The notes: generated by a model not told the origin, from the sequence alone. A stretch of DNA of 32,000 nucleotides from Candidatus Poseidoniaceae archaeon (GCA_943789275.1 CALSTM010000002.1:90001-122000); one strand, 5' to 3'. Counted from the first letter of the stretch, positions 8,409-29,861 are shown. Made by a program: numbers and translations.

Positions 8409-8423
8409 AATTTACACCTTCCC

Positions 8424-9080
8424 TCAGTTACCCTCTACAATTAGTCGGTAGGCAACTGTTCTACCCGCAGATGGGGACTTGCGGATAACTTTCAGTACGC
8501 GGTCGGCGATCCAACCTGCAGCGAGTGGTTTGTGTTCAGGGTCTGCTGCAAGACGAGCGTTGTCTTGTGCTTCAGCAGTTTCCTTGATGACTTGAACGAC
8601 CGGGTCCGTAATGAGGATTTTCGGAAGCCATTCCTTGGCAAGTCGTGGCTCGCCGGTTTCGTCATCGGATTGAACCATTTCCCAAGGAGCGAGTTCTTCG
8701 CTCTCAATGGCAAATTGTTCTTCGACAGAGATGTTGGCGTCTCCAACCAGTTCCTGGTGAGGGACAAGGTCGTGGTTGAGTGCGTTGAAACGCATGGTGA
8801 TTTCAGGGCGATCGAAGTCATCGATAGCCTTTGCACGGATTGTGATTTTCTTGCTCTTTGATTTTGAGCGGCGACGGGAACCTTGTTCTGCGATAACAGA
8901 CATGGTGTTGGTGAATTGTTCTGAATCCTTAGAAACGCCAAGTGTGGATGCGACTTCATCAGAGGACATTGCCTTGATGTCGGTCATGTTTCGGTCTGTT
9001 GCTAATTTGTGTGCGAACTCTTCGGAGACTCCAAGCTCCATGAGTCGCTTCTTTGTTGCGCTTTTTACTACCATCCTCAT
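8424..9080 (-). CDS. rpoH: RNA polymerase subunit H (Rpo5) homolog, unusually long (218 aa): N-terminal ~100-aa module plus an RpoH core with insertions
   Basis: C-terminal half carries RpoH hallmarks: HDLVPHQELV, LPKILITDPVV and VLKVIRKSPSAGRTVAYRLIV. Sits directly upstream of rpoB. The start could be the ATG at 9080 or at 9074 (MRMVVKS vs MVVKS). Confidence 0.85.
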   Translation of the reverse strand: MRMVVKSATKKRLMELGVSEEFAHKLATDRNMTDIKAMSSDEVASTLGVSKDSEQFTNTMSVIAEQGSRRRSKSKSKKITIRAKAIDDFDRPEITMRFNALNHDLVPHQELVGDANISVEEQFAIESEELAPWEMVQSDDETGEPRLAKEWLPKILITDPVVQVIKETAEAQDNARLAADPEHKPLAAGWIADRVLKVIRKSPSAGRTVAYRLIVEGN

Positions 9081-9386: not shown

Positions 9387-10874
9387 GTGAAATTGAGGCA
9401 AATGGGAAACGAGGAAATCTTCGGCCCAAGGGATGCCGAACACGAAATTGGACGTTTTGAAAGGAAGGCGAAACAGGTGTTTTGGAAGACGCCGCAGAAC
9501 CGAGAAATCGACCTTCTCATTCCATCAACAGTTTACCCTCCTCGAGAAGACACAGATCTCATGGCACAAACCATCGCAAAACTACCAAAACCAGGCGCGA
9601 AACGCCTGCTCGAAATTGGATGTGGCTCTGGAGCAATTTCGGTTTTTGCCGCGCAACTTGGATTCACCGTTACCGCATGCGATATCAACCCATACGCAGT
9701 TGCTGCTAGCCGGCATGCTGCCGTAACAAACGGCGTCACATTCGAGGTTCGTGAAGGAGGTCCAGGCCCAACTAGAGACGGCACTGTCGAACAGTGGGCT
9801 GGAAGCAAACCGCATGACATCATCGTGTGGAACCTCCCCTATCTGGCCCATGACAGCGAATCTCAACTGTTGGGGCCCATGGAAGAAGCCGCCCTTCTCG
9901 ATACGGACCCGAAAGGTCTTGTTTCACGCCTACTCAAGCATCTTCAATCAAGTAAAATCCTCAGTGAAGACGGATTGGTTTTTTTACTCATTTCAAACAA
10001 TCAAAAAGGAAATATTGCCCGCAAGGAATGTTTAGCCAATGGATTTGCAGTTCGAGTTGTGGCCTCGGAAACATTCGAGGACGGGGAATGTTTGGAAGTG
10101 CTTGGCATCTGGAGACCCTATCACTCAAAGAGCATCAATTTCGTTGAAAGTATTCCATCAACCAACACGGCCTTGTTGCAATCTGACGATGACATCGGGA
10201 CTTTGCTCCATGCTGGAGTTCAATCATCAGGCCACGGTAGACGTGGACGCCCTTGGTCGCATGAAGAGCAAGCGTTTGCAGGCTCCTGGGTCCTCGATGA
10301 GATTCGAGGCGTTCCAAATCCAAACCAATTGCAATTGAGAGCAGGATTAGCCCTGCATCAGGCGATTGTCGCAATGGACATTCCGACCGAACTGGTCGCT
10401 CTCAAATGGCCAAACGATGTTTTACTTCGAATTGGGGGGGAAACGCGCAAAGTTGGAGGCGTGTTGATCGAAAGTCGTAGCCAAGGTAAAACCACCCGTA
10501 TTGTCCTCGGCATCGGATGCAACATGACAAGTAAAAACCACCACAAGAAGGAGTATTCGTTGGCCTCGATGGCTGAGTTATCAGAACATGCATCGACTGA
10601 AGAATTCCTCCCGATAATCCATGCATCGGTGGCCTCTTGGCTTGAAGATAAGGAAGGTATTGAGGCGGTAAGAAACGACAACGTTATTTCTCTTTTTGAA
10701 ACCCAATTTTTGGCAAGTATCTCCTCGCTCGGAGAACCTATCTATAGAAACTCTAAGATGCAATTTCACTCTATGAACTCCGACGGAAACATCCAACTTA
10801 TCGACCAAAATCAGCGCCTCCATCTGATCAACGATGGCGAGGATGTGGCATGGGCAAAGTTCCGACCGATTTAG
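9387..10874 (+). CDS. birA: Fusion protein: Mtq2/HemK-type SAM-dependent (glutamine-N5) methyltransferase domain + biotin--[acetyl-CoA-carboxylase] ligase (BirA) catalytic and C-terminal domains
   Basis: N-terminal half: YPPREDTDL, LLEIGCGSGAIS, DINPYAV, WNLPYL (an NPPY-type motif). C-terminal half from ~residue 245: IPSTNTAL, GRGRRGRPW, KWPNDVLL, GVLIE, GIGCNM. The ORF track start 9387 is GTG. The in-frame ATG at 9402 is preceded by GAGG and may be the true start. Confidence 0.85.
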   Translation: MKLRQMGNEEIFGPRDAEHEIGRFERKAKQVFWKTPQNREIDLLIPSTVYPPREDTDLMAQTIAKLPKPGAKRLLEIGCGSGAISVFAAQLGFTVTACDINPYAVAASRHAAVTNGVTFEVREGGPGPTRDGTVEQWAGSKPHDIIVWNLPYLAHDSESQLLGPMEEAALLDTDPKGLVSRLLKHLQSSKILSEDGLVFLLISNNQKGNIARKECLANGFAVRVVASETFEDGECLEVLGIWRPYHSKSINFVESIPSTNTALLQSDDDIGTLLHAGVQSSGHGRRGRPWSHEEQAFAGSWVLDEIRGVPNPNQLQLRAGLALHQAIVAMDIPTELVALKWPNDVLLRIGGETRKVGGVLIESRSQGKTTRIVLGIGCNMTSKNHHKKEYSLASMAELSEHASTEEFLPIIHASVASWLEDKEGIEAVRNDNVISLFETQFLASISSLGEPIYRNSKMQFHSMNSDGNIQLIDQNQRLHLINDGEDVAWAKFRPI

Positions 10875-11881: not shown

Positions 11882-13243
11882 ATGCAGGGGGAGCCAGGTA
11901 CTGAGCATAAGGCCGACTCCTCTGAAGATATTTTGAAGGAACTCGCATCGAACGAGACATCGCTCCTCGCCCTCATCAAAACGCTCCTCTCGCCGAAGAC
12001 ATTACCTCATTTACTGATGATTGTGGTTCTTTCCACTGCCCTTTACTTTGTCGCGAATTCCAACAACGGAGAAGATATTGCTGCACTCGGATTCATCTCT
12101 CTTTCTTTAGGATACGTCATAACGGCAATTTTCTCGACCAATGAAAAGGTTCGTTCTTGGATTACCATTGCCCACGAACCGGATGTATCTCAATTCAATC
12201 TTGTTCAAAAAATTAAATCAAGCATCAAAATCTGCGCCTTCCCTATTTCAGTATCTGCAGGTATTGGCATACTCATCTTGGTTCTGTTCAGCCAAGACTC
12301 AGCGACTGACCTTCCAGCCGTATTCCCAATCAGTCTCGCCTCCTTATTTGTGATCTGGGCTGTCGCTCAAGGAAGGTCGTTTAGTTCATGGGCATCTTCG
12401 CTTTCAGCGAAAAAACTACCTGAGAAACAGGCCACAACTGGAAACTTAGCCGTCATGAATGCGATTCAATTTGCCATCATCATGGCTTTGTCGCTGGCAG
12501 GAATCATCGGTTTTGAGTTCCTCTACGAGAAAGAATGGGACTTGAGCAATGCAGTTGTTTCCAATATCTTGTTTTTGGTAATCGCATCTACAGCCTACGG
12601 ATTAACTGCGTTTTGGACAAGAGACGCCCGGCGTACAGCCATGCACGATAAGGCATTGAAAAAATTCTCTCGACGATGGACTCTTTTAGCACACATCTTC
12701 GCAACGTGGCACCTCTTGACCGTATGGCGTCAACTGGTGATGTCGCAACAAACCATCGAGATTTTTGTCGAAGAAGTTCTGTTAATGATGTTCACTGTAT
12801 TCATGGCGATTTGGACACTTACCTCGCAATCCATCGGCCCAAAATTCAAACTCCTTTCGACTGAAAACGCCCTGCCTTGGGGTCTGGCCTTCGGATATGC
12901 TTACGCAGGAAGCGTTGCTATGCTTGCGACTGCTCTGGACGACATCACCTACGTTATGGTCACCGGGCACATCATCGCGTTCCTCACCATCACATGGATG
13001 CAAAGGAGTGTTCTGCTCAAGGTGCTGTCCAAGCACGATATCGACGTCACTGTACAGCGACGCATCGAAGCGCATGCATCGAAAGTCGAGGCCTCAAAAC
13101 AGACCAATGAAGAATCTCAAACCGTTGAAACCGAAAACGATGATGCTTGGCAAGAGGACAAAGACGTACAGTGGAGCGGTGAAGTTGGCAATACCATTGG
13201 CGAAGATGTCGAATGGAACGAAGTCATCGAAATGGACGACTAG
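11882..13243 (+). CDS. Hypothetical polytopic membrane protein (~10 TM) with an acidic C-terminal tail
   Basis: 453-aa ORF with many hydrophobic helices. GGGAGGAG Shine-Dalgarno motif 5 nt upstream of the ATG. C-terminal ~60 aa rich in E/D/W. Confidence 0.7.
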   Translation: MQGEPGTEHKADSSEDILKELASNETSLLALIKTLLSPKTLPHLLMIVVLSTALYFVANSNNGEDIAALGFISLSLGYVITAIFSTNEKVRSWITIAHEPDVSQFNLVQKIKSSIKICAFPISVSAGIGILILVLFSQDSATDLPAVFPISLASLFVIWAVAQGRSFSSWASSLSAKKLPEKQATTGNLAVMNAIQFAIIMALSLAGIIGFEFLYEKEWDLSNAVVSNILFLVIASTAYGLTAFWTRDARRTAMHDKALKKFSRRWTLLAHIFATWHLLTVWRQLVMSQQTIEIFVEEVLLMMFTVFMAIWTLTSQSIGPKFKLLSTENALPWGLAFGYAYAGSVAMLATALDDITYVMVTGHIIAFLTITWMQRSVLLKVLSKHDIDVTVQRRIEAHASKVEASKQTNEESQTVETENDDAWQEDKDVQWSGEVGNTIGEDVEWNEVIEMDD

Positions 13244-14157
13244 GACTCGCCACGGATACCTGAAAGAAGCGTAACCACTCGAATGGTGTCCTCTAAATCT
13301 TCGCTGACTCGAGCACCGAGGATAACTTGAGCGTTCGGATCCAACGCTTCTGTGAACATGTTGGCAACTTCATCAACTTGCCCTATCGTCATACCAATAC
13401 CTCCTTCGACTTGTATCAAACATCCTTGAGCACCACCAACATCCAATTCAGCAAGGGGTGCCATGAGAGCAGAGTGCAGAATGCCCTCTGGGTCGTCAGG
13501 TCGTCCTGTGCCGACCAAAAGCGTCGCTTCTCCTTCCTTTTCCACAATAGCTCTCAAATCCATGAGGTCAAGATTGATGAGCCCCATTCGCATCAAGGTT
13601 CGTACCAAACCTTCGACTAAATCTTCGACCCATTCAGCACCCATTTGCCATGCTTTGCCCCGCTCTCGCGCCTGACGAGCCAGCCGTTCTAAGGAGAGTC
13701 GGACCGTCACATGAGCAATGTTTTCCAGTCGATGAAGGCCTTCTTGGGCGATTTGTGCACGGGTCTCTTGAACATCAAAAGGAAGGGCTGCAACGGCGAC
13801 AACAATCGCTCCAGATTGCCGTGCTTGGCGAGCAAACTCATGTGCCGCTCCTGTACCGGTTCCGCCGCCAAGTCCAGTCAGTAAAAGGACCAATTCAACC
13901 GGCTCAAGTACGGTCCGAGCAAGAGATGAATATCCCCGCATCCTTTGCTCAGCAAGCGGTGGAAGTGCCGCACAACCAACCGAGTCAAGGGCGTGACCAA
14001 GGCGCAAGAGGTGTGCAGAACCGCTGTCGGTGAAACTTGCGTCATCAGCGTCGACTAAGCAAAGATCGGCGTTGCCTTCACAACGTAAATGAGCGCCTTT
14101 CGCCCACGAACAGCCCAAGCCGCCCACACCAGCGATGAGGATTTGGGAGGCTTCCAT
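13240..14157 (-). CDS. Divergent FtsZ/tubulin-superfamily GTPase, 305 aa, lacking a C-terminal linker and tail
   Basis: Tubulin signature GLGGGTGTGAA. ALPFDVQE corresponds to FtsZ PFxFEG. T7-loop-like GLINLDLMDLRAIV conserves the N, D, D positions. The C-terminal domain pattern (GAQGCLIQVEGG...VILGARV...IRVVTLLSGI) is colinear with FtsZ. The G1 box is atypical (GVGGLGCSWA). Confidence 0.75.
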   Translation of the reverse strand: MEASQILIAGVGGLGCSWAKGAHLRCEGNADLCLVDADDASFTDSGSAHLLRLGHALDSVGCAALPPLAEQRMRGYSSLARTVLEPVELVLLLTGLGGGTGTGAAHEFARQARQSGAIVVAVAALPFDVQETRAQIAQEGLHRLENIAHVTVRLSLERLARQARERGKAWQMGAEWVEDLVEGLVRTLMRMGLINLDLMDLRAIVEKEGEATLLVGTGRPDDPEGILHSALMAPLAELDVGGAQGCLIQVEGGIGMTIGQVDEVANMFTEALDPNAQVILGARVSEDLEDTIRVVTLLSGIRGES

Positions 14158-14708: not shown

Positions 14709-15548
14709 ATGGGTGAGGCTATGCTAAGGAACTCATTTTCCACACGTTCGGGAGTAGTGCTTGCGCTAGCGGTTTTACTCCTCGTCCCTGGCTTTGCAAC
14801 TTCGCTCCACAGCGGCGTTGGAGGCTCCCAGGACAACGCTGGAGAAACCATCGATGACGTTGCCAAAGAAGGCTGTCTTTGCCACAATGAAGCGGCAGAT
14901 AACTCCGTCCAAATCATCCTTGACGACGTACCTTACGGCTGGATTGGTGGCGAAACATACACCATGACGCTCCAAATCATCGGCGGACCACCGGCAACGG
15001 GCGTCTACACAGCAGGATTTGCCATTCGTACGACCGACGGCGTCCTTGGCGGTGAAGGCGTCCAGAACTGGGACGAAGACGTAACAGCGCTCACGCACAC
15101 CGAGGCATCTGCTGACAATGCAGACCGAATGTGGGTCATCACTTGGCAAGCGCCAGAATCTGGCTCCGATACAGTCAACTTTTGGATCACTGGCAATGCT
15201 GTTAACGGCGACCAACTGAACAATGCCGGTGGACAGGAAGACAAGTGGAACCAACTCCTGTTCGCCCTCCAAGAAGGCAGCGATTCAACAACCGCACTTG
15301 GCACTCGAACTCTTTTCGCTGGCGATGGAAATGTCAGCCCTCCAGAACCAGCCCACCACGGTGTGGACCTCGAGCACATGGGTGCTGAACTTCGCGCTCA
15401 CTGGCTCGGTCTGCTCGGGTTCGGCGCAGTCATCTTGGTGATTATTTTCGCTGGATTGATGCTGCGATACAGCTTCTCTACATCCTACACCGGACGAACC
15501 AATCAACTCCGATTGCGATACAAACTCATGCGAAGAGGTGACCAATGA
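14709..15548 (+). CDS. Secreted, C-terminally membrane-anchored protein of unknown family; first gene of the Rieske/cyt b operon
   Basis: 279-aa ORF. Signal-peptide-like N-terminus (VVLALAVLLLVPGFATS), a Thr/Gly/Asn-rich middle region, a C-terminal TM (WLGLLGFGAVILVIIFAGLML) and a basic tail. ATGA overlap with the next gene. Confidence 0.7.
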   Translation: MGEAMLRNSFSTRSGVVLALAVLLLVPGFATSLHSGVGGSQDNAGETIDDVAKEGCLCHNEAADNSVQIILDDVPYGWIGGETYTMTLQIIGGPPATGVYTAGFAIRTTDGVLGGEGVQNWDEDVTALTHTEASADNADRMWVITWQAPESGSDTVNFWITGNAVNGDQLNNAGGQEDKWNQLLFALQEGSDSTTALGTRTLFAGDGNVSPPEPAHHGVDLEHMGAELRAHWLGLLGFGAVILVIIFAGLMLRYSFSTSYTGRTNQLRLRYKLMRRGDQ

Positions 15549-15991
15549 TGGACGATACAATCACGACCCTACTTCGAAAGGTTGCCAGTGGCAAAGTCAG
15601 TGTCGAAGATGCACGAACTGCATTGGAAGATGCTTCGTTGACCGAAGACCAAATGCAGTCAGCGATTGACCATGGAGTATTCAACCTCGCCGAGTCAGGA
15701 ACTATTGTCAGTGCATCCCTCGCTCCTTCCGGAGCATCCAATCTGATCATGATGTTCTTCGTATGGGGAATCTTTTGGTCGTGCTACTGGGTCTTTTCCA
15801 TGATTTACGGCCTGGCCAAGGGATGGGACCAACAACAGTTGTCGTACCATGTAGCCATGATGCTCATCACGCTTTGCTTGTTGGGCATGGCTTACCTCAA
15901 ATTCGTCTTGCCAGACACAATCATCGTCAAGCACGGAATGAACAAGTTCGTTCCTGAACACCAGAAAGACTGGAAGGAATACAAGTGGTGA
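15545..15991 (+). CDS. Small 2-TM membrane protein with a soluble helical N-terminal domain
   Basis: 148-aa ORF. GAGGTGA Shine-Dalgarno motif just upstream. Two hydrophobic helices. The N-terminal LLRKVASGKVSVEDARTAL loosely resembles SHOCT-type short helical motifs. Confidence 0.6.
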   Translation: MMDDTITTLLRKVASGKVSVEDARTALEDASLTEDQMQSAIDHGVFNLAESGTIVSASLAPSGASNLIMMFFVWGIFWSCYWVFSMIYGLAKGWDQQQLSYHVAMMLITLCLLGMAYLKFVLPDTIIVKHGMNKFVPEHQKDWKEYKW

Positions 15992-15997: not shown

Positions 15998-16843
15998 ATG
16001 GCACGTGAATACGATCTCAAACCAGCACCTTCCGCTGCCGAAACCGGTTCAGTAACGACCTCTTCGTCGATCAATCGACGGCAATTTCTTCGCTACGGAT
16101 TCAATACAGCAACTGGAGTCTTAGCCGCATCACTCGGCGTCCTCGGGTTCGCATCCATCCTCCTGCCTCCAGGCGGTACCAACGAAGGCGAACTTGGCGT
16201 GAAGTTTTGGGCTAAAGGCCGTGAAGATGAAGCGTGGTACGGTGCAAAACACGAACAGTTGATGTTTCGACAAGACTTCGTTGATGAAGCTGCGAAGTCC
16301 AGTACAGGAACATCCGGAGCTGCAGGAATATGGAACGGCGTGCCAGTTGTTGTCACCTACGTCACCCACAGCGAATACGCTACGACTCCACTCTCAAACG
16401 GTAAGGCACGCTTCCAATTTACTGAAGGTGTTGACGAGACGGGCAAAACCATCGGTCACTTCGAAGACTTGAGCGATGCAGACCCCCGACTCCTTCCTTC
16501 CGACAACTTGGTCATGATTTTCGGCCGATGCACTCACCTTTGCTGCATTCCCGGATGGCAACTTGTATCGAACTCGTTCACAGAAGATTCATGGACGCCG
16601 GGTGGAGGAGACGACGGTGGTACCAAACTGTTCTGTATTTGCCACTCCTCGAGATTCGACCCCACTGTATTGGAAATGAACACCAACCGAAACCGTTCAA
16701 ACGGCTCGACATTCAATTATGCAGGAATCCGTAAAGCAGGAGGGCCTGCTCCTGTCGGACTACCCATAATCCCCATTCAATTGAATGGCGATGCAATCGA
16801 GGGCATCGTAGACTATCTCGACTGGTACACATACTGTGACTGA
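15998..16843 (+). CDS. Rieske [2Fe-2S] iron-sulfur protein with a twin-arginine signal
   Basis: Tat motif SINRRQFLRYG followed by a TM helix. Cluster boxes CTHLCC and CICHSS. GGTGATC Shine-Dalgarno motif 4 nt upstream. Confidence 0.9.
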   Translation: MAREYDLKPAPSAAETGSVTTSSSINRRQFLRYGFNTATGVLAASLGVLGFASILLPPGGTNEGELGVKFWAKGREDEAWYGAKHEQLMFRQDFVDEAAKSSTGTSGAAGIWNGVPVVVTYVTHSEYATTPLSNGKARFQFTEGVDETGKTIGHFEDLSDADPRLLPSDNLVMIFGRCTHLCCIPGWQLVSNSFTEDSWTPGGGDDGGTKLFCICHSSRFDPTVLEMNTNRNRSNGSTFNYAGIRKAGGPAPVGLPIIPIQLNGDAIEGIVDYLDWYTYCD

Positions 16844-16854: not shown

Positions 16855-17721
16855 ATGACGACAATGTTTTGGGTTCTCTGGTTTTTCATCGCCTTTGTTG
16901 TGGTGCTTGTTGCGTTGACGCTTCGTCAAGAAAGCAGCGATACTCCACGCCGTGAGATTCTACGTGCAGTGGAATCAACAGGAAAGATGGGTTTTGCTGA
17001 ACGTCTGTTCCTTTGGGTCTTTTCTTGGCTCGATACTCGTTTCAGACTTCAAGATTACTGGAACATGTCAAAGGGTGCATACTACAACATGCACCGACAG
17101 ATGCCGCTTTCCCACGCTGAGAAATACAAGCTTCGAATAATTTGGTACTGGTACCCGCTTTACTGCTTGGGAGGAATATCGTTCCTCTCGTTCATTATCT
17201 TAGTCGTCACTGGAACCGTTCTCGGAATATACTACGTCCCCGGTGGAGAAGGCGACCCGTCTCCTGCCTATGCGAGCATGCAATTCATCATGACTGAACT
17301 TCCGTTCGGCTACATCATCCGTGCAGTTCACCACTGGTGTACCCACTTCATGGTCGCCAGCGTGTTCCTGCATATGTGCCGTGTCTACTTCACCGGTGCA
17401 TACCGAAACCCTCGTGAACTCAACTGGCTTATCGGCGTTGCACTCATGGCATTGACCATTGTTTTTGGATACTCAGGCTACCTCCTTCCTTGGGACACAC
17501 TTGCATACGGTGCGGCAGTTATTGGAATCAACTTGGCAAACTCGAGCCCATTGGTTGGGAAATACATCGCAACCTTGCTTTTCAGTGGCTCTTCCTTGAC
17601 CTCTCGAACCGTGACTCGGATGTACTTCATACACGTGTTCATTCTACCGGTCATCGTGACAACACTGATCATCATTCACTTATTCATTGTCTGGGTACAA
17701 GGCATTGCAGAACCACATTGA
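16855..17721 (+). CDS. Cytochrome b, N-terminal (b6-like) di-heme subunit with an extra N-terminal TM helix
   Basis: Helix B His pair (VHHW...FLHM, 13 intervening residues). Helix D His pair (FIH...IIIH, 14 intervening residues, the b6-type spacing). YRNPRELNWLIGV block. GAGGTGA Shine-Dalgarno motif upstream. Confidence 0.9.
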   Translation: MTTMFWVLWFFIAFVVVLVALTLRQESSDTPRREILRAVESTGKMGFAERLFLWVFSWLDTRFRLQDYWNMSKGAYYNMHRQMPLSHAEKYKLRIIWYWYPLYCLGGISFLSFIILVVTGTVLGIYYVPGGEGDPSPAYASMQFIMTELPFGYIIRAVHHWCTHFMVASVFLHMCRVYFTGAYRNPRELNWLIGVALMALTIVFGYSGYLLPWDTLAYGAAVIGINLANSSPLVGKYIATLLFSGSSLTSRTVTRMYFIHVFILPVIVTTLIIIHLFIVWVQGIAEPH

Positions 17722-17738: not shown

Positions 17739-20567
17739 ATGGGACTAATCGAAAATTTCGGACGTGTTGCTTCTTCATACATGGAGGAGAAAGAGCAATT
17801 GCAAGAGGTCGCTGGAAAGCGTACTCGTACTCGAACGGGCCACGGTTTTTGGCCGCATGAAGTGTTGCGTGACACCATTCTCTTGTCGTTTATGGCAGCG
17901 GTGTTGCTGTTTTACGCTTGGTTAATTCCCCCACCGCTCCACGGTGCTGCGGACCCTTATGCACAAGCCGGTTTCGTGTTCCCTGATTGGTATGTTCTGT
18001 TCTCCTACGGTTACCTAAGATGGGGTGAATACCTGCCACAATTCACCGTCCCAACTGGATTCATTGGTGAAATAGTTGGCCAACCTGTATTCCCATGGAA
18101 CGCTGCATGGTGGGGCGCTGCCCTAACCGGTATTCCAGTCAGCATTCTCGCACTACCGCCTTTCCTCGGCGGCCGCGAAAAGCGTCCAGTTGAAGACCCA
18201 TGGTTTGCAACTGCTGGTGCCGTCTACCTGGCTCACATTTGGTTTATCTCTGTTTTCTCAATCAACATCTTCTTGGAACTGTACGAAAAGAACCGTTCAG
18301 ATTACTGTAAACTGGACAGCCATGGCGACCTCTTGTGTGGTGTAAGAGAACCATGGGTAGCTGAGGCATTCAACACAATACCATGGGTTATGACTGGCGT
18401 GTTAGCATGGATTTGTTTCTACTTCCTTGCCCGTGGAATGATGGTGAAAGCGTGGGGTGCTGGATTCAAGCCGAGCCATGCAAAGCAAATTCTTATTGGG
18501 ACTCTACTGGTCTCAACAGCCGGGACTGTCGCCACATGGGACACCTATGACGACGGTTTTTGGGACCAAGGTGGTTTGTTAACCATCAAAGGTCTAACAC
18601 ACGACTACTACCCTGAACTCGAAGCAATGCGTACACAACCAACAGATGTTCACGTACACGCTACCAACGAGTTCACAGACGAACGGGGATGGAGTGAAAC
18701 TGAAACGGTACCAACGACCGCTTGGCTGGATTGGATGATTTACCAACCTGCCCGTTACATCATTATTGATTTCAACGATGCGAACGGCCATCAAGACGCT
18801 GCAAACGGCATCAACGCTGCTGCAGGCAGTACCACCTTCAACGGTGGAGAGGGATGGACCGATTCCGGTACATTCACAGTGACTGAAGACACCTCACTGT
18901 TCCCGGATGGCCACCATGAATCCATCGAGACACTGACGACTGACCTCAGTTGTGAGTACCGTTCATCAGAGCGAAAGATCAACGATGTTTCCACCGTGAC
19001 CATGATTGCAACGACATTGACCGTTACAAACAGTCAGAACAAGGTCGTTTCAAGCTTTGACAACTGTGCAGGGGCAACTGTCGAACTACCTGTTGGCACC
19101 TATTCATACGAATACACCGTCGCAGTAAGCGGTGCTCTGGCTTTGAACAACAGCATCCAAACGGAAACAGCCTTCAACATTGCAACCTTCCAACCGCTCC
19201 TTGTCTGGGGCGAGAATGCTCCTGGAGCACTTGCTGGAACGACAGTGAATCTTTCCAGTTCGACGGACATGGCAGCAGGTGGAACCAACTTTGCGGCCAT
19301 TGAAAACCCAACCTACCACACCAATCCTAAGGCACTCGATGCCAAACTTACCTATGCAATGTTCATTCCATGTTTGACCTTTGGTGCCATAGTCTTCGTC
19401 GTCTTGCGCTCGATGGGTCGTGGATACGAGTTTGAGATGAACAAGTGTTACGGCTGTGACCTTTGTGACGATGCGTGCCCAGTACGTTTGTTCAACGGTG
19501 GAGACAAACTCAACATCATCTACAACTCATGGAACAATGAAGACGACGGTGTTCCGCTCTATTCATGTTTGACATGTACCGCATGTACCAACGCCTGCCC
19601 ACAACTGGTGAATTACGATTCATACGTGGACATCCGCCGCTCACTCATTGTCGGCGGACCTCAAGCAGAAATTGCACACACCGTCCTCCAAGCAGTTCTC
19701 GCTGCTGAAGCAGAAGAAGCGGCAGACGAAGATTTCGTGGCAACAGAAGATTACCCATTGACCTCAAACATCGGTTACTATCCTGGCTGTGTGGACTACC
19801 TCGACCAAGAGATGGTGTTCTCGCATGTCAACGAGGGAGAAATGAACCTTGGAGACGCTACGACATCTGCATTCACGCTCTTTGATGAGATGGAAATGGA
19901 TGTATCCTACCTTGGTCGTGACTTCCTCAAGTGCTGTGGTCACGATCAAAAATGGCAAGGTCTTGATGAGGTCTTTGAAAAACTCAAGGCGTACAATCAA
20001 AAGAAGATTGAGCAATCGGGAATCGATACTTTGGTTTCATCATGTGCTGAATGTTTCCGTACCTTCGCTCGAGATTACGAACTTGAAGGCGTCAAGGTCA
20101 TGCACACGACCGAGTTCCTCATCGAAAATGGATTTGATATGAACCTCAAAGCCGAAGAAGAAACAACCGTCACCTACCACGACCCGTGCCGTCTTGGACG
20201 ACAAATGGGAATCTATGAAGAGCCTCGTGAACTCATCGCTGGCGTTGAAGGTGTGGAAATCGTCGAGATGGAACACCACGGTGAAGACGCAATGTGCTGT
20301 GGCGTATCAAGCATGATGTCGTGCAATGAAAATGCCCGTTCACTTCGTGTCACTCGTATGGAAGAAATCCGAGCTACTGGAGCAGATACCATGCTCACCT
20401 CTTGCCCAAAGTGTGTATCTCACTTTGAATGCCTCAAATTCGAAGGTGATGAGCGCTACGAAGACATCGAAATTCTCGATGTTGTATCGTTCCTTGCACG
20501 GCAAGTCGAAGCAAAGAAAGCAAAGGCTGCTACAGAAGTGACCTCAGTCACCGAAGTCGAAGCTTGA
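17739..20567 (+). CDS. Fusion protein: cytochrome b C-terminal/subunit-IV-like domain + ~270-aa extracytoplasmic domain + TM + 2x[4Fe-4S] ferredoxin + two CCG domains (HdrD/GlpC-like)
   Basis: 942-aa ORF. PDWYVLFSY (the PEWY Qo-site motif region) within 5 predicted TM helices. A sixth TM lies at residues ~537-557. Ferredoxin motifs CYGCDLCDDACP and CLTCTACTNACP. Then two Cys-rich units with CCG (PGC...CCGHD...SSCAEC and DPCRLG...CCGVS...CPKC). GGAGGAT Shine-Dalgarno motif upstream. Confidence 0.88.
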   Translation: MGLIENFGRVASSYMEEKEQLQEVAGKRTRTRTGHGFWPHEVLRDTILLSFMAAVLLFYAWLIPPPLHGAADPYAQAGFVFPDWYVLFSYGYLRWGEYLPQFTVPTGFIGEIVGQPVFPWNAAWWGAALTGIPVSILALPPFLGGREKRPVEDPWFATAGAVYLAHIWFISVFSINIFLELYEKNRSDYCKLDSHGDLLCGVREPWVAEAFNTIPWVMTGVLAWICFYFLARGMMVKAWGAGFKPSHAKQILIGTLLVSTAGTVATWDTYDDGFWDQGGLLTIKGLTHDYYPELEAMRTQPTDVHVHATNEFTDERGWSETETVPTTAWLDWMIYQPARYIIIDFNDANGHQDAANGINAAAGSTTFNGGEGWTDSGTFTVTEDTSLFPDGHHESIETLTTDLSCEYRSSERKINDVSTVTMIATTLTVTNSQNKVVSSFDNCAGATVELPVGTYSYEYTVAVSGALALNNSIQTETAFNIATFQPLLVWGENAPGALAGTTVNLSSSTDMAAGGTNFAAIENPTYHTNPKALDAKLTYAMFIPCLTFGAIVFVVLRSMGRGYEFEMNKCYGCDLCDDACPVRLFNGGDKLNIIYNSWNNEDDGVPLYSCLTCTACTNACPQLVNYDSYVDIRRSLIVGGPQAEIAHTVLQAVLAAEAEEAADEDFVATEDYPLTSNIGYYPGCVDYLDQEMVFSHVNEGEMNLGDATTSAFTLFDEMEMDVSYLGRDFLKCCGHDQKWQGLDEVFEKLKAYNQKKIEQSGIDTLVSSCAECFRTFARDYELEGVKVMHTTEFLIENGFDMNLKAEEETTVTYHDPCRLGRQMGIYEEPRELIAGVEGVEIVEMEHHGEDAMCCGVSSMMSCNENARSLRVTRMEEIRATGADTMLTSCPKCVSHFECLKFEGDERYEDIEILDVVSFLARQVEAKKAKAATEVTSVTEVEA

Positions 20568-21385: not shown

Positions 21386-21676
21386 TCAATCGCCTGAAGG
21401 TGGTGACTGACCTTCGTCCATCCCCGTGATTTCATAGTTCGAAGGAAACAAGGCAATGAGAACACCAAGGATGAGAGAAGCAAGACCCCAACCGAACATC
21501 TGGCGTACAAAGAGCATTTCAAGCGCGATGACGACAAGAAGCATTCCACCGATGTTGGAAGTCCAAACTAATGTCTTGAAGGTCGACAGGGAGACTCCAG
21601 GCGTTCCTTCCTTTCGATAAGGACCGAACTCTCCACCAAAACGTTGCGCTGTATCTTGTTTATCATTTTTGGACAT
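21386..21676 (-). CDS. Small 2-TM membrane protein (hypothetical)
   Basis: 96-aa ORF. The GAGGTG Shine-Dalgarno motif overlaps the ferredoxin stop codon, 5 nt before the ATG. Two hydrophobic helices. Confidence 0.6.
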   Translation of the reverse strand: MSKNDKQDTAQRFGGEFGPYRKEGTPGVSLSTFKTLVWTSNIGGMLLVVIALEMLFVRQMFGWGLASLILGVLIALFPSNYEITGMDEGQSPPSGD

Positions 21677-21685: not shown

Positions 21686-22018
21686 TCATCTGTCTATCAT
21701 TGTGATTGCATCGGTTGGGCAAGCCAAAACACATAATCGGCACCCAGTGCAATCATCACGCAAAATTTTCGCTTTTTGATTTGACTCGACTTTAATCAGT
21801 GGGCTTGCCATTGCCACTTTATACATCTCAATGGCATCATCGTCACAAACGATGGTACATTGATCGCATCCTATGCAAAGGCGCTCTTCGACAAATGCAA
21901 CAGTGGTTTCCCCACCCTTTATCGAAGCACGTTGCTCGCCTCGAAGACGATTAAGAGAAGTTCGAATACGAACCGCCTCTTGCTCACGGCGCTTGCGCAA
22001 CTCGTCGGAGGAGGTCAT
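21686..22018 (-). CDS. 2x[4Fe-4S] ferredoxin with a basic N-terminal extension
   Basis: CIGCDQCTIVCD and CTGCRLCVLACP motifs. ATGA overlap with the upstream gene, and GGAGGT 6 nt upstream of the ATG. Confidence 0.88.
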   Translation of the reverse strand: MTSSDELRKRREQEAVRIRTSLNRLRGEQRASIKGGETTVAFVEERLCIGCDQCTIVCDDDAIEMYKVAMASPLIKVESNQKAKILRDDCTGCRLCVLACPTDAITMIDR

Positions 22019-22725: not shown

Positions 22726-23946
22726 TTACTCCGCGCCGCCGTACGAGAGCAATTCTTTGCCCATAGCCAACATGGAGAGTTCTGCAACAAGGGCATGCCA
22801 ACCATGGGCATGCTCGCCGTAGCGACGACCGGATTGAGTAAACGATTCAAAAGTCGCGCTTGGAGAATTCAAATTTTCGATGTCTGACCGCTTAGCATTA
22901 ATTCTATAGAACCAAGAACTTGCCTGGCCATCTACCAAATAAACCACGGGTTCGACGGGCGCACCATCATCGGTTTTCAATGAGGTAGGGATTCCTTCTT
23001 GAATCAAAAAATTATCAACGTTAACTCCACCTTTGGAATACATGAGCTTCTTCATCTTACGGTTGGAAAGTTCAAGCAACTCAGTTCCGCTGTGAACCGC
23101 CATGATACCAAGACCGTATGTCCCTCGGTCGTTCTTGATGAAGGCGACCGGTTCTCGTTTGATTCCAAGAGATTGGTACTTCGTTCGAATTGAATCAAGG
23201 AAGGCATCGACTTCAATGGCCAAATCTTTTCTGCACGCTTCTTTTTCGAGGCATTTGTCGTTTGAAACAAACCAATCCGTCATCAGGTACCACGGGTCGA
23301 TTCCTAGAAGTTCCGAAATTTCTTCAACATAGCCTTTGAGAACTTCATAGTGTTGAGATTTGCGCCGGCGATGCCACCCCATTGAAGGGGGTGGAGATAC
23401 GACTTGGTTACCAAACCCTTCAATCAAGCCCTCTGTCAGGTCGTTATTCAGTAGAACCAAATCTGGTTTCAAGCCATTAATCAGCAATACATCTTCTCCA
23501 TCAACTGTTTCTGATGCAACTGGGTCCAATTTGAGTGGTCCAGAAAGACCAACGAGGTGCCCCAAGTTTTCGAAATCCAATGAACCAACAGTGCATTTGA
23601 AACCGCCAAGCAGGAGCAGTTCCTTGAGTGCGGCAATGTTTTCGATGTACCCCTTATTTCTCGTGTGCGATTCTGGATACAGATGCACCCACTTACAGTG
23701 GTTGTACTCTCTGTTAATGTGGTTCTGTAAAAGTTGGGCCAATCTCGGTTTATCTTCTTCTGAGACGTTGTTGAACCCTGCTGGGAAATGGTTGGCATCG
23801 ACCACTCCAATCTTCCATCCAGCGTCTCGAATGTCGACGCTACCGTAAATCGGAATGGGGATATCCATACGCTTTACTTCCATCCAAGCCGTGACTTCTT
23901 CACGCTTACTTTCGAGAAGTTCGGTTAAATTATGTACAAATGTCAC
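22726..23946 (-). CDS. gshA: Glutamate--cysteine ligase, GshA (Pfam GshA / T. ferrooxidans-type) family
   Basis: Family-typical blocks: YGSVDIRDAGWKIGVVDANHFPAGFNN, PESHTRN, LLNNDL, PPPSMGWHRRRKSQHY, IDPW, DRGTYGLGIM, IQEGI, EPVVYLVD, WFYRI. The GTG start overlaps the asnB stop (GTGA) and follows a perfect GAGGTGATC Shine-Dalgarno motif. Confidence 0.72.
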   Translation of the reverse strand: MTFVHNLTELLESKREEVTAWMEVKRMDIPIPIYGSVDIRDAGWKIGVVDANHFPAGFNNVSEEDKPRLAQLLQNHINREYNHCKWVHLYPESHTRNKGYIENIAALKELLLLGGFKCTVGSLDFENLGHLVGLSGPLKLDPVASETVDGEDVLLINGLKPDLVLLNNDLTEGLIEGFGNQVVSPPPSMGWHRRRKSQHYEVLKGYVEEISELLGIDPWYLMTDWFVSNDKCLEKEACRKDLAIEVDAFLDSIRTKYQSLGIKREPVAFIKNDRGTYGLGIMAVHSGTELLELSNRKMKKLMYSKGGVNVDNFLIQEGIPTSLKTDDGAPVEPVVYLVDGQASSWFYRINAKRSDIENLNSPSATFESFTQSGRRYGEHAHGWHALVAELSMLAMGKELLSYGGAE

Positions 23947-25955: not shown

Positions 25956-26591
25956 TTACAACAACCCAAGGAAGGGTTCCAACAAGAGAACCATACCAAG
26001 TGGAATCAACACCATAGTTGCGTTATCATCAATGTACCTCAGACGAGGCCACTCTGATGCCACACACAGTGGTGCGAAGAGAAAGGCCAACCAGAGTGGA
26101 GTTTGGACGAAGTGCCAACAAGCAACCCAAACAAGGAAGAGAAACAAGGTTGAGGATACAATGACGTTACGTGTCGTCATACCTTTTCGTCGCATCTCAC
26201 CAAGGAAAGGGTCACCGAGTGACAGTGAGAGAATTAATGGCCAAATGTATTCTTCTGTTGGTGCCAGAAGGAAAACCAAACCGATCCCAAACGCACCCCA
26301 ACCCAACGCTGAAATTTGCCGGGCCTCGTATTCCCTTTGACCGTAAATGGTAAGTCCGAACTTGAGGCGAGTCCCTTCAGCAGCAAACAAAAGGAAAACG
26401 ACGCAAGAGACAAACTGTGGCAACGTCAAGTCCAGTGAATCCGCAACACTTTCACCCCACTCAAAATAGATGAGTGGGAGAAAAGACATCCCAAGGTGAA
26501 TTGCTCTTCGGAGTATATGGCCGCCCATCCCACCAACTGAAAGTTCGACTGGGTTTGTTAGTTCGACGTGTTCACTCATCGGCAAATCCAC
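25956..26591 (-). CDS. Polytopic membrane protein of the CTP-dependent polyprenol kinase / CDP-alcohol (dolichol/phytol kinase, CdsA-like) type
   Basis: Pattern LRRAIHLG ... AEGTRLKF ... GQREYEARQISALGWGAFG ... LSLGDPFLGEMRRKG ... IDDN resembles dolichol/phytol kinase family motifs. Overlaps the meaB 3' end by 8-20 nt, depending on which start is used. Confidence 0.45.
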   Translation of the reverse strand: MDLPMSEHVELTNPVELSVGGMGGHILRRAIHLGMSFLPLIYFEWGESVADSLDLTLPQFVSCVVFLLFAAEGTRLKFGLTIYGQREYEARQISALGWGAFGIGLVFLLAPTEEYIWPLILSLSLGDPFLGEMRRKGMTTRNVIVSSTLFLFLVWVACWHFVQTPLWLAFLFAPLCVASEWPRLRYIDDNATMVLIPLGMVLLLEPFLGLL

Positions 26592-27483
26592 CTATGAGTC
26601 TCATGGCTTCATCCAAATGAATTGAACCCTTCGCTAATTGATGGAGTAAATCGTCGAGTTTTGGAGACTCCAAAATTTTCCGTTCATGGAACGCCAGTAA
26701 CCTCTCTCTCCATCGTGCCCGCACTGAACGGCCGGATGAAGGAAGTTGGAGAAGAATGGTTGCTGCTTCATCGACTCCAGTTCCGTGAAGGGCTGAAGTG
26801 AGAGCTACAGGAGGCGTAGAGCCAATACCTAATTCAAACGATTCTCGGATTTCATCAGCGTGCAATTCGGCTCCCGGGAGATCGGATTTGTTGACAAGAA
26901 CTGCATCAGCAAGTTCGAGCAAGCCCGCTTTTTCTGCCTGTATGCCGTCACCGCGTGCTGGGCCTTCGACCACGACAATTCGGTCAGCCAAAGCGGCACA
27001 TCGAACCTCAGATTGACCTGCACCAACCGTTTCAATGACCACTTTCCCCCATCCGAGAGAAAGCAGAACTTTCGTCATGTCTTCGACGATTACCGGCACA
27101 CTGCCTGACGCTTTACGTGTCGCTACAGAGCGGAAGTATATTTGTTGGTTCAAGTCCTTGTCATCAACGACGGTCATCCGAACACGGTCACCCAAAAGCG
27201 CCCCGCCCGTACGAGGAGAAGACGGGTCAACAGCCAAAACAGCAACGCGAAGACCTTGCTTAGCCCAAGCGGTGAGTAATCCATCCAATAAGCAAGACTT
27301 TCCGACACCCGGTGCACCAGTGATGGCCAATGTTTGCCAGTCATCTTCAGGTAGAGAAGGCACAGGACCCAGAACATCAAGTGCATCCTCAAGTTGAAGC
27401 GATCTGTTTTCGATTGCACTGAGCGTTCGAGCTAACGATCGGCGATCTCCAGACTTTGCATCGATAAGAAATTCTGCAGTCAT
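26572..27483 (-). CDS. meaB: Methylmalonyl-CoA mutase-associated GTPase MeaB/ArgK
   Basis: P-loop GAPGVGKSCLLD, VLAVDPSSPRTGGALLGDRVRM, ETVGAGQSE, VNKSDL. Adjacent to the B12-binding mutase subunit. Confidence 0.9.
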   Translation of the reverse strand: MTAEFLIDAKSGDRRSLARTLSAIENRSLQLEDALDVLGPVPSLPEDDWQTLAITGAPGVGKSCLLDGLLTAWAKQGLRVAVLAVDPSSPRTGGALLGDRVRMTVVDDKDLNQQIYFRSVATRKASGSVPVIVEDMTKVLLSLGWGKVVIETVGAGQSEVRCAALADRIVVVEGPARGDGIQAEKAGLLELADAVLVNKSDLPGAELHADEIRESFELGIGSTPPVALTSALHGTGVDEAATILLQLPSSGRSVRARWRERLLAFHERKILESPKLDDLLHQLAKGSIHLDEAMRLIGGFADE

Positions 27484-27492
27484 GTGAGCACC

Positions 27493-27939
27493 TCATGCCG
27501 ATGAGGTCCAGTACCAGTCGCTTCCTTCTCCAACACCAGCGTCCTTCACTTCGACTGCTTCGTCAATAAATTGTAGAATCTCAGCTGTTGGTGTACCTGG
27601 GCCAAAAATTGCTCGGATTCCACAGGCAAATAGGGCGTCTCTGTCGTCAACGGGTATAATTCCGCCACCGAAGACAATAACGTCATTCAAACCTTCTTGC
27701 TTGAGCAAATCACACACCTTTGGGAAAAGATGCTGATGAGCGCCGGAGAGTGAGGATAAGCCGAGAAATCGCGCATCTTCGTCTCGAACAGTGTCCACAA
27801 TTTGTTGAGCACTGCGTCGTAGACCGGTGTAAATGACTTCGTTCCCAGCGTCTCTCAACGCTCTTGCCACAACTTTAGCCCCTCGGTCGTGACCGTCTAA
27901 ACCGGGCTTGGCTACTACGATTCGCCATGGTTCGCTCAT
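27493..27939 (-). CDS. Methylmalonyl-CoA mutase small subunit (cobalamin-binding domain)
   Basis: IVVAKPGLDGHDRGAKVVARALRDAG contains the DxHxxG B12-binding motif. SSLSGAH and GGGIIP blocks are present. Confidence 0.9.
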   Translation of the reverse strand: MSEPWRIVVAKPGLDGHDRGAKVVARALRDAGNEVIYTGLRRSAQQIVDTVRDEDARFLGLSSLSGAHQHLFPKVCDLLKQEGLNDVIVFGGGIIPVDDRDALFACGIRAIFGPGTPTAEILQFIDEAVEVKDAGVGEGSDWYWTSSA

Positions 27940-28099
27940 GGTTGTTGCAGGTACTGCCTCCCTATCAACACACCCCCGTAGATACGGATGAGAGGTGCAA
28001 ACGGCGAGCGTTGAGTTAGAGTGAAAATACCCTCGTTTCTCAATTCATCCATAGGCAACGCATAAGGGCGGGTTTTGCGTAGACCACTCGGGGAAGCCT

Positions 28100-29653
28100 A
28101 TGGCATCGACTGAAGAACGACTTCAAGACCTACGTAATCGCAAATCTCGAAGTGAGATTGGCGGAGGCCAAGAGCGAATTGATAGGCAGCACCAAAAGGG
28201 GAAAATGACGGCACGAGAGCGTATTGAAGTACTTCTTGATGAGGGCACATTCCAAGAAATTGACGCACTGGTTGAACATCGGTGCAGAGATTTCGGCATG
28301 GACAACGACATCATCCCTGGTGATGGAGTTGTCACGGGCCACGGTTCGATTAACGGCCGTCAAGTGTTCACATTCGCTCAAGACTTCACTGCATACGGCG
28401 GTTCACTGGGCGAAATGCATGGACTCAAAATATGCAAAGTTCTCGATATGGCACTCAAAACTGGCCGACCTGTAATTGGTTTGAACGATTCAGGTGGCGC
28501 CCGTATTCAAGAAGGGGTAGCATCACTGGGAAGTTATGCAGAGATATTCTTCAGAAATGTTCGAGCATCCGGCGTAGTCCCACAAATTTCGGTCATCATG
28601 GGCCCATGTGCAGGTGGTGCAGTATATTCCCCTGCCATCACTGATTTCATCATCATGGTCGAAGAATCCTCATACATGTTCATCACCGGGCCAGAAGTGA
28701 TCAAAACGGTTACCAACGAAGAAGTGAGTTTTGAAGACCTTGGTGGCGCATCAACGCACGGTACGAAATCTGGCGTATCCCACTTTACAGTCGCCGATGA
28801 TGAAGCAGCAATCCAGATGGCACGAGACCTGTGCGACCTCCTGCCGCAAAACAATCTTGAGCGTCCTCCGTCGAAGAAGACCAACGACCCAATCGACCGT
28901 TCATGCGATGCGCTCGACTCCATCATGCCCGACCAAGCCACAAAGGCATACGATGTGGTTGATGTCATCACGGAAATTCTTGATGACGGTGGATTCCTTG
29001 AAGTTCAAGCCGATTGGGCGCAAAACATCGTTGTTGGTTTTGGCCACCTTGGTGGACACACTGTTGGCGTAGTTGCGAACCAACCCAAAGTTTTGGCAGG
29101 CTGCCTCGATATCGATGCAAGCGACAAAGCGGCGCGCTTTGTGCGGTTCTGTGATGCGTTTAATATTCCAATTATCACCTTGGAAGATGTACCTGGATTC
29201 CTACCTGGCACCAACCAAGAATGGGGTGGGATTATTCGACACGGAGCGAAACTCCTCTATGCATTTGCAGAAGCTACCGTGCCCAAACTTACCGTGATTC
29301 TTCGGAAAGCGTACGGCGGAGCGTACGATGTCATGTCATCAAAGCATATTCGAGGAGATTACAACGTCGCATGGCCGACGGGGGAGCTCGCCGTCATGGG
29401 TGCCGATGGTGCTGTGGAAATTATTCACCGCAAGCGCATCTCAAGTTCACGAAATGCAGAACAGGAGCGCCAACGACTGACTGAAGATTTCAATGAGAAA
29501 TTTGCGAACCCATACACCGCTGCAGCACTTGGGTACCTTGACGATGTCATCGAACCAAATCAAACGAGAAACAAACTTTGCAGAGCGCTTGAGATGTTAA
29601 TCGATAAAGAAGAACTGCGACCTGCTCGCAAGCACGGCAACATCCCGTTATGA
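28100..29653 (+). CDS. pccB: Propionyl-CoA carboxylase beta chain / methylmalonyl-CoA carboxyltransferase (12S-type) subunit
   Basis: [37 protein letters not shown]. 517 aa, typical for the family. Confidence 0.92.
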
Positions 29654-29662
29654 GGCGTTTTC

Positions 29663-29857: not shown

Positions 29858-29861
29858 AACG

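Follow-up and report, generated by a model that had tools for sequence, protein, structure and literature searches.

A putative subunit IV–HdrD-like fusion protein in the Rieske/cytochrome b operon of Marine Group II archaea

Two designs of membrane bioenergetics make use of b-type cytochromes: the Rieske/cytochrome b complexes, which operate a Q cycle, and the enzymes of the HdrDE, DsrMK and EtfD type, in which a cytochrome b works with a protein bearing CCG domains. Modules added on the n (cytoplasmic) side of Rieske/cytochrome b complexes have published precedents (PMC12954380, PMC4122944). In anammox complexes, such a module has been proposed to accept the low-potential electron of bifurcation at the quinol-oxidising (Qo) site (PMC12954380), while rare bacterial cytochromes b of the “PDWF-FeS clade” are fused to 4Fe-4S plus MvhD domains or to ferredoxin plus flavin oxidoreductase domains (Kao & Hunte 2014, PMC4122944). 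Reconstructions of Marine Group II (MGII; Poseidoniales) archaea, which are aerobic heterotrophs, noted a cytochrome b and a Rieske protein and the absence of a canonical bc1 complex (PMC6336850). Here we analyse a 32,000-nucleotide stretch of DNA from Candidatus Poseidoniaceae archaeon (GCA_943789275.1 CALSTM010000002.1:90001-122000; hereafter the window), in which the gene at 17739-20567 (+) appears to join the two designs in one polypeptide, a domain of the subunit IV type being fused to an HdrD-like iron–sulfur (Fe-S)/CCG module.

On balance, we consider it likely that this protein belongs to a b6f-like Rieske/cytochrome b complex whose subunit IV is extended, via transmembrane helices, by an n-side HdrD-type module, and that the module connects the n-side hemes, by an Fe-S wire, to a cytoplasmic Hdr-type site. 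The open reading frame (ORF) has an ATG start and runs for 942 codons without an internal stop, in agreement with the first-pass annotation of this DNA. From N- to C-terminus, the protein comprises the predicted subunit IV domain with its PDWY motif, two extra transmembrane helices, a β-sandwich domain of ~270 aa, a further transmembrane helix and the Fe-S/CCG module, which is predicted to be cytoplasmic:

17739..20567 (+), fifth gene of the operon, encoding the subunit IV–insert–HdrD-like fusion, 942 aa
17739..18284 (+), putative cytochrome b C-terminal/subunit IV domain, residues 1-182, helices E, F and G (profile matches, PF00032 relatives, alignment with short fusions)
17982-17993 (+), PDWY Qo motif, residues 82-85, invariant
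18375..18536 (+), two MGII-specific transmembrane helices, residues 213-266, the second weakly hydrophobic (hydropathy; absent from short fusions)
18540..19346 (+), variable Ser/Thr/Asn-rich β-sandwich insert, residues 268-536, predicted to lie outside (low conservation, AlphaFold2 model, composition, sequons)
19347..19409 (+), last transmembrane helix, residues 537-557 (mean Kyte-Doolittle hydropathy 2.15; aligns with the single post-subunit-IV helix of non-MGII fusions)
19434..19604 (+), ferredoxin-type domain, residues 566-622, with two CxxCxxCxxxCP motifs (Fer4_8/9/10 matches)
19788..20054 (+), CCG unit 1, residues 684-772, with C684, C732, C733, C769 and C772 (Pfam CCG)
20169..20426 (+), CCG unit 2, residues 811-896, with C817, C853, C854, C889 and C892 (best Pfam CCG stretch)

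The landmarks that the first-pass annotation had read from the sequence were recovered. PDWYVLFSY occupies residues 82-90, in the loop past the first transmembrane helix; residues 268-536 are hydrophilic and rich in Thr, Asn and Ser (S+T+N 27.9%, compared with 11-15% in the other regions); hydropathy places a helix at 537-557; and the CxxCxxCxxxCP motifs lie at 570-581 and 610-621, with CCG at 732-734 and 853-855. Five helices are strong on the Kyte-Doolittle scale (46-64, 122-144, 157-180, 213-232 and 537-557) and one more, at 248-266, is weaker; the first-pass count of five helices plus one hinges on it. Across 18 homologues (62-83% identical), all 18 cofactor cysteines are invariant. The subunit IV and Fe-S/CCG parts are near-invariant in this alignment, while the middle domain varies in both sequence and length. 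Within the protein, conservation is highest in the Fe-S/CCG module, which speaks for a core function.

Such a long ORF could in principle be an assembly chimera or two genes joined by a frameshift, a concern already raised at first pass. Full-length homologues (908-967 aa, 59-92% identity) were found in more than 120 clusters from independent sources (NCBI, JGI, ENA, Tara and Logan), and a scan of 185,579 GTDB species genomes gave at least 596 confirmed stretches, of which 80 were kept; one kept locus of the Poseidoniales type lies on a 1.5-Mb contig. An insert-free version of the fusion is also present in a 2.28-Mb Thermoplasmata chromosome record (CP070808.1). The artefact explanation is thereby effectively refuted, and we give it almost no weight.

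Three independent lines support the assignment of the N-terminus to the cytochrome b C-terminal/subunit IV family. An exhaustive search of 1.84 billion representatives with an N-terminal profile returned 133 proteins; among the 70 distant relatives scanned, 57 are PF00032 members (best E = 2.7e-22), with P(D/E)WY at the equivalent site in nearly all. Orthologous short fusions bear a precomputed PF00032 label in addition to CCG. A profile built from 14 family members matched only six PDB sequences, all of them b6f subunit IV; these matches were weak (E = 0.04-0.3), and their alignments were in register across WP...ADPFA...P(E/D)WY. As in subunit IV, the motif stands in the loop past the first helix and is followed by two more transmembrane helices (122-144 and 157-180). 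The variant found here, PDWY, is a form of the Qo motif tied to low-potential quinone and Rieske systems (Kao & Hunte, PMC4122944). The genomic context is likewise that of a subunit IV gene, the fusion lying directly downstream of the genes for a Rieske protein and a four-helix b6-type cytochrome b, as the first-pass annotation had stated. When the N-terminal domain was used in a word-indexed homologue search, fragments of this same family were the only matches. The first-pass assignment of this domain stands on profile and transitive evidence, and not on a direct Pfam match.

The C-terminal part has the cysteine complement of HdrD. Its two CxxCxxCxxxCP motifs are predicted to hold two cubane [4Fe-4S] clusters, and they are followed by two five-cysteine CCG domains. 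Outside the fusions, this part is closest to standalone HdrD-like proteins of ~340 aa from Methanoperedens and Methanosarcinales (42% identity, E = 4e-101), which are encoded in hdrD-like/hdrC/hdrB/long-hdrA clusters and not beside hdrE. This identity to the Methanoperedens proteins and the retention of both five-cysteine CCG sites, unlike in EtfD, uphold the label “HdrD-like” given at first pass. At one related locus (L002), the fusion gene is itself followed by a matching set, HdrC-HdrB-HdrA-MvhD. Given this set and the placement of the standalone relatives, the fused module would be the HdrD-like member of hdrD-C-B-A-type clusters, tethered to a Rieske/cytochrome b complex. No match to a NarI-type (PF02665) HdrE partner was found among the window ORFs scanned. 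As a separate observation, at a Methanoperedens sp. locus (L013, 8011-9135) a 374-aa protein with an N-terminal HdrC-like dicluster domain and a multi-helix membrane domain adjoins the standalone HdrD-like gene, with a long HdrA next to it; it may be an alternative membrane tether of an HdrD-like/HdrA system.

Among solved structures, the best match of the module was mycobacterial EtfD (PDB 9OJN, E = 8.5e-24). In EtfD, the first CCG site holds a linear [3Fe-4S] cluster with four cysteines and a His caps the second cluster, both being non-catalytic, while HdrB has two solvent-accessible noncubane clusters with an additional bridging cysteine on each (PMC13083937). The fusion has CCG at the position of CTG in EtfD and CAEC at that of CPHC, and all ten CCG cysteines are invariant. 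Thus, neither the single cysteine of CCG1 nor the His-capped cluster D2 of EtfD is found in the fusion. Its membrane region also differs: EtfD carries a five-helix b-heme region N-terminal to the Fe-S/CCG part, and the fusion carries a domain of the subunit IV type. An EtfD-type function was down-weighted on the differences in cluster ligands. The module keeps the Hdr cysteine pattern and is, as far as its motifs tell, compatible with disulfide/thiol chemistry.

The fusion gene closes an operon of five tightly spaced genes on one strand. All Poseidoniales loci whose flanks were long enough, from MGIIa as well as from MGIIb, show the same five genes. The other four are:

14709..15548 (+), gene 1, secreted/anchored CxCH protein, 279 aa (NCBIfam choice-of-anchor V, E = 1.1e-20)
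15545..15991 (+), gene 2, DUF7318-like small membrane protein, 148 aa (weak Pfam DUF7318 match, E = 1.1e-3)
15998..16843 (+), gene 3, Rieske [2Fe-2S] protein, 281 aa (TIGR01416, E = 1.5e-10)
16855..17721 (+), gene 4, b6-type cytochrome b (N-terminal four-helix part), 288 aa (PF00033, E = 5e-42; NCBIfam cytochrome b6, E = 2.6e-58)

Genes 3 and 4 have the hallmarks of a b6f-type operon. The Rieske protein carries a twin-arginine translocation (TAT) signal (RRQFLR), one transmembrane helix and the cluster boxes CTHLCC and CICHSSRF, and its PDB matches were bc1 Rieske subunits only, aligned over both boxes. The cytochrome b has the heme ligands H159/H173 and H260/H275 (spacing 14 and 15) and the heme c_n motif CLGG; CxGG is present in 55 of 56 partner cytochromes b. 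The protein of gene 1, which has no Pfam match, consists of a signal peptide, an outside domain of ~190 aa, a C-terminal transmembrane helix and a highly conserved basic cytoplasmic tail (...LRLR.K..RRGDQ). C56, C58 and H59 of its G-C-x-C-H motif are invariant in 41 homologues, and a distant homologue has GCTCH. No CxxCH protein, as expected of a c-type cytochrome (f or c1), was found within the operon, and the CxCH of gene 1 is not a canonical heme c motif. In L005 and L002 the slot of gene 1 is taken by a cytochrome c (mono- or multiheme in related operons). By its position, the gene 1 protein is a candidate for the electron-accepting subunit on the p side, and it may be an analogue of cytochrome f/c1 with an unusual cofactor site. 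Positional orthologues of gene 2 labelled DUF7318 occur in L001, L005, L006, L087, L088 and L089 (phmmer E = 1e-9 to 2e-3).

Two small genes accompany the operon:

21686..22018 (-), o110, 2x[4Fe-4S] ferredoxin, 110 aa (Fer4_21, E = 2.3e-14)
21386..21676 (-), o96, 96 aa, two hydrophobic segments (neighbour conservation)

Among 58 Poseidoniales loci, o110 adjoins the fusion operon in 51 and o96 in 46. In MGIIb, the fusion, o110 and o96 follow one another in that order on one strand, and in the window the o110/o96 block is inverted. o110 aligns nearly end to end with the N-terminal part of the polyferredoxins of L001 and L006 (E = 1.7e-15 and 1.1e-14) and is probably a further subunit or partner in the cytoplasm. 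o96 shows weak similarity (E = 3e-3 and 5e-3) to the small terminal ORFs of the L089 and L005 operons, and it is possibly a small membrane subunit.

The operon resembles those of cytochrome b6f and the b6c complex of Firmicutes in its split cytochrome b, the four His with spacing 14 and 15, CxGG, the P(E/D)WY motif of subunit IV, the TAT-exported Rieske protein and the gene order. Unlike in b6f/b6c, subunit IV would bear additional transmembrane helices, an outside β-sandwich and a cytoplasmic part with 2x[4Fe-4S] and two CCG units; a secreted CxCH protein takes the slot of cytochrome f or c1, for which no gene was found in the operon, and the Qo motif reads PDWY. With HdrDE of Methanosarcinales, DsrMK, HmeCD and TmcBC, the system would share a membrane b-type cytochrome combined with a cytoplasmic protein that has two [4Fe-4S] clusters and two five-cysteine CCG domains. 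However, the MGII membrane partner is made of the Rieske protein, cytochrome b6 and subunit IV with a bifurcating Qo site, and not of a NarI-type di-heme HdrE/DsrM; in contrast to HdrDE, the link is covalent and the host is an aerobic heterotroph, presumably without coenzyme M (CoM) and coenzyme B (CoB). EtfD (Rv0338c family) is alike in that one polypeptide combines transmembrane helices with two CCG domains and two cubane clusters that face the cytoplasm.

The Rieske/cytochrome b complexes of anammox bacteria (Kuenenia Kustd1480-85 and Kuste4569-74) also combine a b6-like cytochrome b, subunit IV and a Rieske protein with an n-side redox module. That module is a separate subunit of the FAD/NAD(P) type in a bacterial, anaerobic system with p-side multiheme cytochromes, in contrast to the fused Hdr-type CCG module described here. 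In the PDWF-FeS clade, too, cytoplasmic Fe-S domains are joined to a cytochrome b that has a Qo-type motif, and MvhD is also encoded beside archaeal fusions. However, members of that clade are full-length bacterial cytochromes b without CCG domains and without a Rieske gene in the cluster, whereas the archaeal system has a Rieske gene, a split cytochrome b and an HdrD-type module. The first-pass annotation did not recognise the fusion from any described Rieske/cytochrome b complex. Indeed, we found no description of a subunit IV–HdrD fusion in the searchable literature, outside which many relevant papers in subscription journals lie, but the fusion is widespread and related ideas have been published.

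In b6f structures, subunit IV begins on the n side, and its PEWY loop is exposed at the p side. Alignment of the long MGII proteins with the short fusions reveals a common plan, in which the subunit IV helices E, F and G and one further transmembrane helix are followed directly by the cluster motifs. With these four helices, the short fusions place the Fe-S/CCG module on the n side. The MGII insertion sits between helix G and the last helix and consists of two transmembrane helices and the ~270-aa domain; since it adds an even number of helices, the n-side position of the module is kept and the insert falls outside. Fe-S domains without an export signal are also expected in the cytoplasm. Lys and Arg are enriched in the predicted inside loops, N-x-S/T sequons are ~4-7x denser in the insert, and the invariant cysteine pairs C190/C200 and C405/C443 both lie in predicted outside segments. 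All of these agree with the orientation proposed at first pass: the Fe-S/CCG module probably faces the cytoplasm and the β-sandwich insert the outside.

The AlphaFold2 model of the insert is confident, with a predicted local distance difference test score (pLDDT) of 86 and a predicted TM-score (pTM) of 0.81. A Foldseek search with it returned only generic β-sandwich/jelly-roll folds (lambda gpJ, p24 GOLD and plant virus capsids; TMq < 0.3) and nothing cofactor-related, and the insert region has no Pfam match at E <= 10. Among Poseidoniales orthologues, the insert varies widely in length and sequence between near-invariant flanking domains; in P0366 (1334 aa) and P0385 (1344 aa) it measures ~660 aa instead of ~260 aa. 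In relatives of the Thermoplasmata type, the partner cytochrome b is enlarged to 532-876 aa by a long N-terminal extension with Big_5 Ig-like domains (L001 898-3174, L087 4343-6973, L089 4366-6984 and L004 4337-5935). Outside β-sandwich decorations thus seem to recur in these archaeal complexes, on differing subunits.

A survey of archaeal metagenome-assembled genomes (MAGs), which the first-pass annotation had suggested, revealed the fusion throughout the Poseidoniales and beyond MGII: it is present in all Poseidoniales sampled and in about 40 non-MGII archaeal clusters. Poseidoniales predominate among the 80 kept of the at least 596 GTDB stretches. The profile search also recovered insert-free short fusions of 518-798 aa (subunit IV, 2xFer4 and 2xCCG) from Thermoplasmata (including CP070808.1), Geothermarchaeales and other archaeal MAGs. 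A split form occurs in L006, where subunit IV with 2xFer4 is followed by a separate CCG gene, and subunit IV with 2xFer4 stands alone in L005, a Halobacteria MAG.

In the non-MGII operons, the start of the next gene often overlaps the stop codon of the fusion (translational coupling). Downstream of the fusion lie a gene for a polyferredoxin-MvhD/FlpD fusion and a small ORF in Thermoplasmata, a polyferredoxin gene in L001, and the HdrC-HdrB-HdrA-MvhD set in L002, whose cytochrome b is 57% identical to that of MGII. These polyferredoxin, Hdr and MvhD genes imply that the n-side module would communicate with cytoplasmic low-potential Fe-S or flavin carriers. In addition, a Geothermarchaeales locus (L088, 3707-10011) encodes, downstream of its fusion, an FrhB-like protein, a 1019-aa HdrA-like protein, MvhD/FlpD, a second CCG protein and a GcvH-like protein of the lipoyl-carrier type. 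This set is reminiscent of sulfur-oxidising Hdr-like systems, in this case attached to a Rieske/cytochrome b operon.

In the mechanism we propose, the two cubane and two CCG clusters would form a wire to the cytoplasm from the n-side hemes b_n and the predicted c_n, which border the quinone-reducing (Qi) pocket; in addition to the Qo and Qi sites, the complex would thereby have a third redox port. The first-pass annotation had suggested direct wiring of this kind, to a thiol/disulfide or organic-acid redox site; of its reading, the architecture and the probable topology are borne out. In an input mode, a cytoplasmic dithiol couple and/or the ferredoxin-like neighbour would feed electrons through the CCG and [4Fe-4S] chain to quinone at Qi, and the enzyme would act as a quinol oxidase with a built-in dehydrogenase. 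This would resemble a reverse HdrDE, EtfD or the ferredoxin-to-heme-c_n route, which has been proposed for cyclic flow in b6f. In an output mode, the low-potential electron of Qo bifurcation would reduce a cytoplasmic disulfide in place of the quinone at Qi, much like the NAD(P)+ reduction proposed for anammox complexes (PMC12954380). The two modes share between them most of the likelihood that we give to the arrangement as a whole; taken singly, the input mode is tentative and the output mode somewhat more doubtful. For an aerobic heterotroph we slightly favour input, because it would leave the Q cycle intact and would not require a stoichiometric disulfide flux. CoM-S-S-CoB is an unlikely substrate in this lineage.

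Several observations weigh against this picture. Of the domains named at first pass, CCG (two stretches, E = 1.2e-22) and Fer4 (Fer4_8/9/10 at residues 566-622) were borne out by Pfam, but Cytochrom_B_C (PF00032) gave no direct match, either to residues 1-274, even at E <= 10, or to the whole protein. The AlphaFold2 model of the subunit IV domain, built from a 14-sequence alignment, was too poor to be used for a fold search (pLDDT 46). The fifth transmembrane helix is weakly hydrophobic (mean Kyte-Doolittle hydropathy 1.18) and is the weak point of the topology. The best NCBIfam match of the protein was TfrB, at 112 bits against a cut-off of 385, and all equivalog cut-offs were missed. The HdrA and MvhD partners of other lineages are lacking in MGII operons. 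Complete CCG motifs are also present in GlpC, GlcF and LutA, enzymes that do not act on disulfides, so that the motifs by themselves do not establish thiol/disulfide chemistry. Finally, an obligate aerobe is an awkward setting for noncubane Hdr clusters, since these are regarded as oxygen-sensitive (PMC13083937).

The CCG clusters could instead be non-catalytic stepping stones, as in EtfD, GlpC and GlcF, forming a pure relay without thiol chemistry. They would link the b hemes to another protein, for instance the ferredoxin o110, a flavoprotein dehydrogenase or electron-transfer flavoprotein (ETF), and the complex might then unite complex III with, for example, a ferredoxin- or ETF-quinone oxidoreductase. 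In the closest solved structure, EtfD, a cytochrome b with 2x[4Fe-4S] and 2xCCG indeed wires ETF to menaquinone, yet ETF-accepting FadF and DgcB are without the cysteine ligands of the first CCG site (PMC13083937), which are complete in the fusion. Likewise, the changes typical of EtfD (a single cysteine in CCG1, a capping His) are absent, and the five-cysteine Hdr pattern is invariant in both units. A ferredoxin partner would fit the conserved neighbour o110, homologous to polyferredoxin subunits of related operons, and a ferredoxin or ETF route for electrons would be useful to MGII, which break down fatty acids and proteins and possess an orphan RnfB (PMC6336850); however, no etf genes were found within the window. 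The separate HdrB in L002 could carry out any disulfide chemistry there. Weighing these points, we regard a relay of this kind as unlikely.

It is also conceivable that the module uses subunit IV as a tether, or meets quinone directly, and exchanges no electrons with the b hemes, a normal Q cycle running alongside. The CCG-domain subunits of type E succinate:quinone reductases, which are reported to mediate contact with the membrane and quinone, offer a parallel for such an arrangement; fusions can mirror co-localisation instead of wiring, and the heme c_n motif speaks for an intact Qi site. Against this, the fusion, or adjacency in the split form (L006), recurs in distant archaeal lineages, always in the same position after subunit IV, and the linker between the last transmembrane helix and the first cluster motif (558-569) is short and conserved, holding the dicluster domain at the membrane face of the n-side hemes. 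We consider a mere anchoring role distinctly improbable and favour the wired, HdrD-type module.

If the module is wired to the b hemes, models of MGII respiration are incomplete, with consequences for proton/electron stoichiometry, for the path of ferredoxin or thiol electrons to oxygen and for redox homeostasis in sunlit oxic water. MGII are among the most abundant planktonic archaea, and the family extends from them to Thermoplasmata, Geothermarchaeales and relatives that add HdrABC-MvhD; it is this abundance of the host lineage, the archaeal breadth of the family and the prospect of a testable three-port Q cycle that make the system of interest. The fused module suggests an extra redox port without counterpart in textbook complexes, and the family provides a tractable test case for quinone-based bifurcation to a cytoplasmic acceptor, so far mainly an idea about anammox complexes.

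As a tentative extension, MGII and several other archaeal lineages may have a three-port machine as their only complex III, which in either mode would tie quinone-based bifurcation directly to soluble cytoplasmic redox chemistry. The low-potential Qo electron would pass through the hemes b and the Hdr-type Fe-S wire to a cytoplasmic disulfide or ferredoxin-type carrier or, conversely, thiol or ferredoxin electrons from the cytoplasm would be injected at heme c_n. According to a proposal by Dibrova (2017), bc complexes descend from cytochromes that served as anchors for Fe-S dehydrogenases (PMC5600118). If true, the three-port reading would bear on this hypothesis and offer a living example of such a bc ancestor, a cytochrome b anchoring a protruding Fe-S dehydrogenase.

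Several other genes of the window lie around the operon. A gene for a GshA-type glutamate-cysteine ligase (22726-23946, -; PF08886, E = 1.5e-99) suggests γ-glutamylcysteine as the low-molecular-weight thiol of the host. Its position ~2 kb from the operon was considered as a clue to a thiol substrate and set aside: the gene is present in 36 of the 58 loci, but the flanking genes are all equally syntenic. Upstream of the operon, 13240-14157 (-) encodes a divergent 305-aa protein of the FtsZ/tubulin family, which scores 139.9 bits against the FtsZ equivalog cut-off of 295 and may be a CetZ-like or other non-FtsZ paralogue; a short FtsZ/tubulin-family gene is kept there in 43 of the 58 loci. The 495-aa product of 9387-10874 (+) shows an unusual pairing of an N-terminal S-adenosylmethionine-dependent methyltransferase domain with a biotin/lipoate ligase domain (BPL_LplA_LipB). 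It was considered as part of an sHdr-like lipoyl system and rejected, being probably linked to the biotin-dependent carboxylase cluster at 28100-30263. The remaining context is of a housekeeping kind, with the archaeal RNA polymerase operon (Rpo H, B, A' and A'') at 44-9080 (-) and genes for a MeaB GTPase, a carboxyltransferase and a biotin carboxyl carrier protein (propionyl/methylmalonyl-CoA-type) at 26572-30263.

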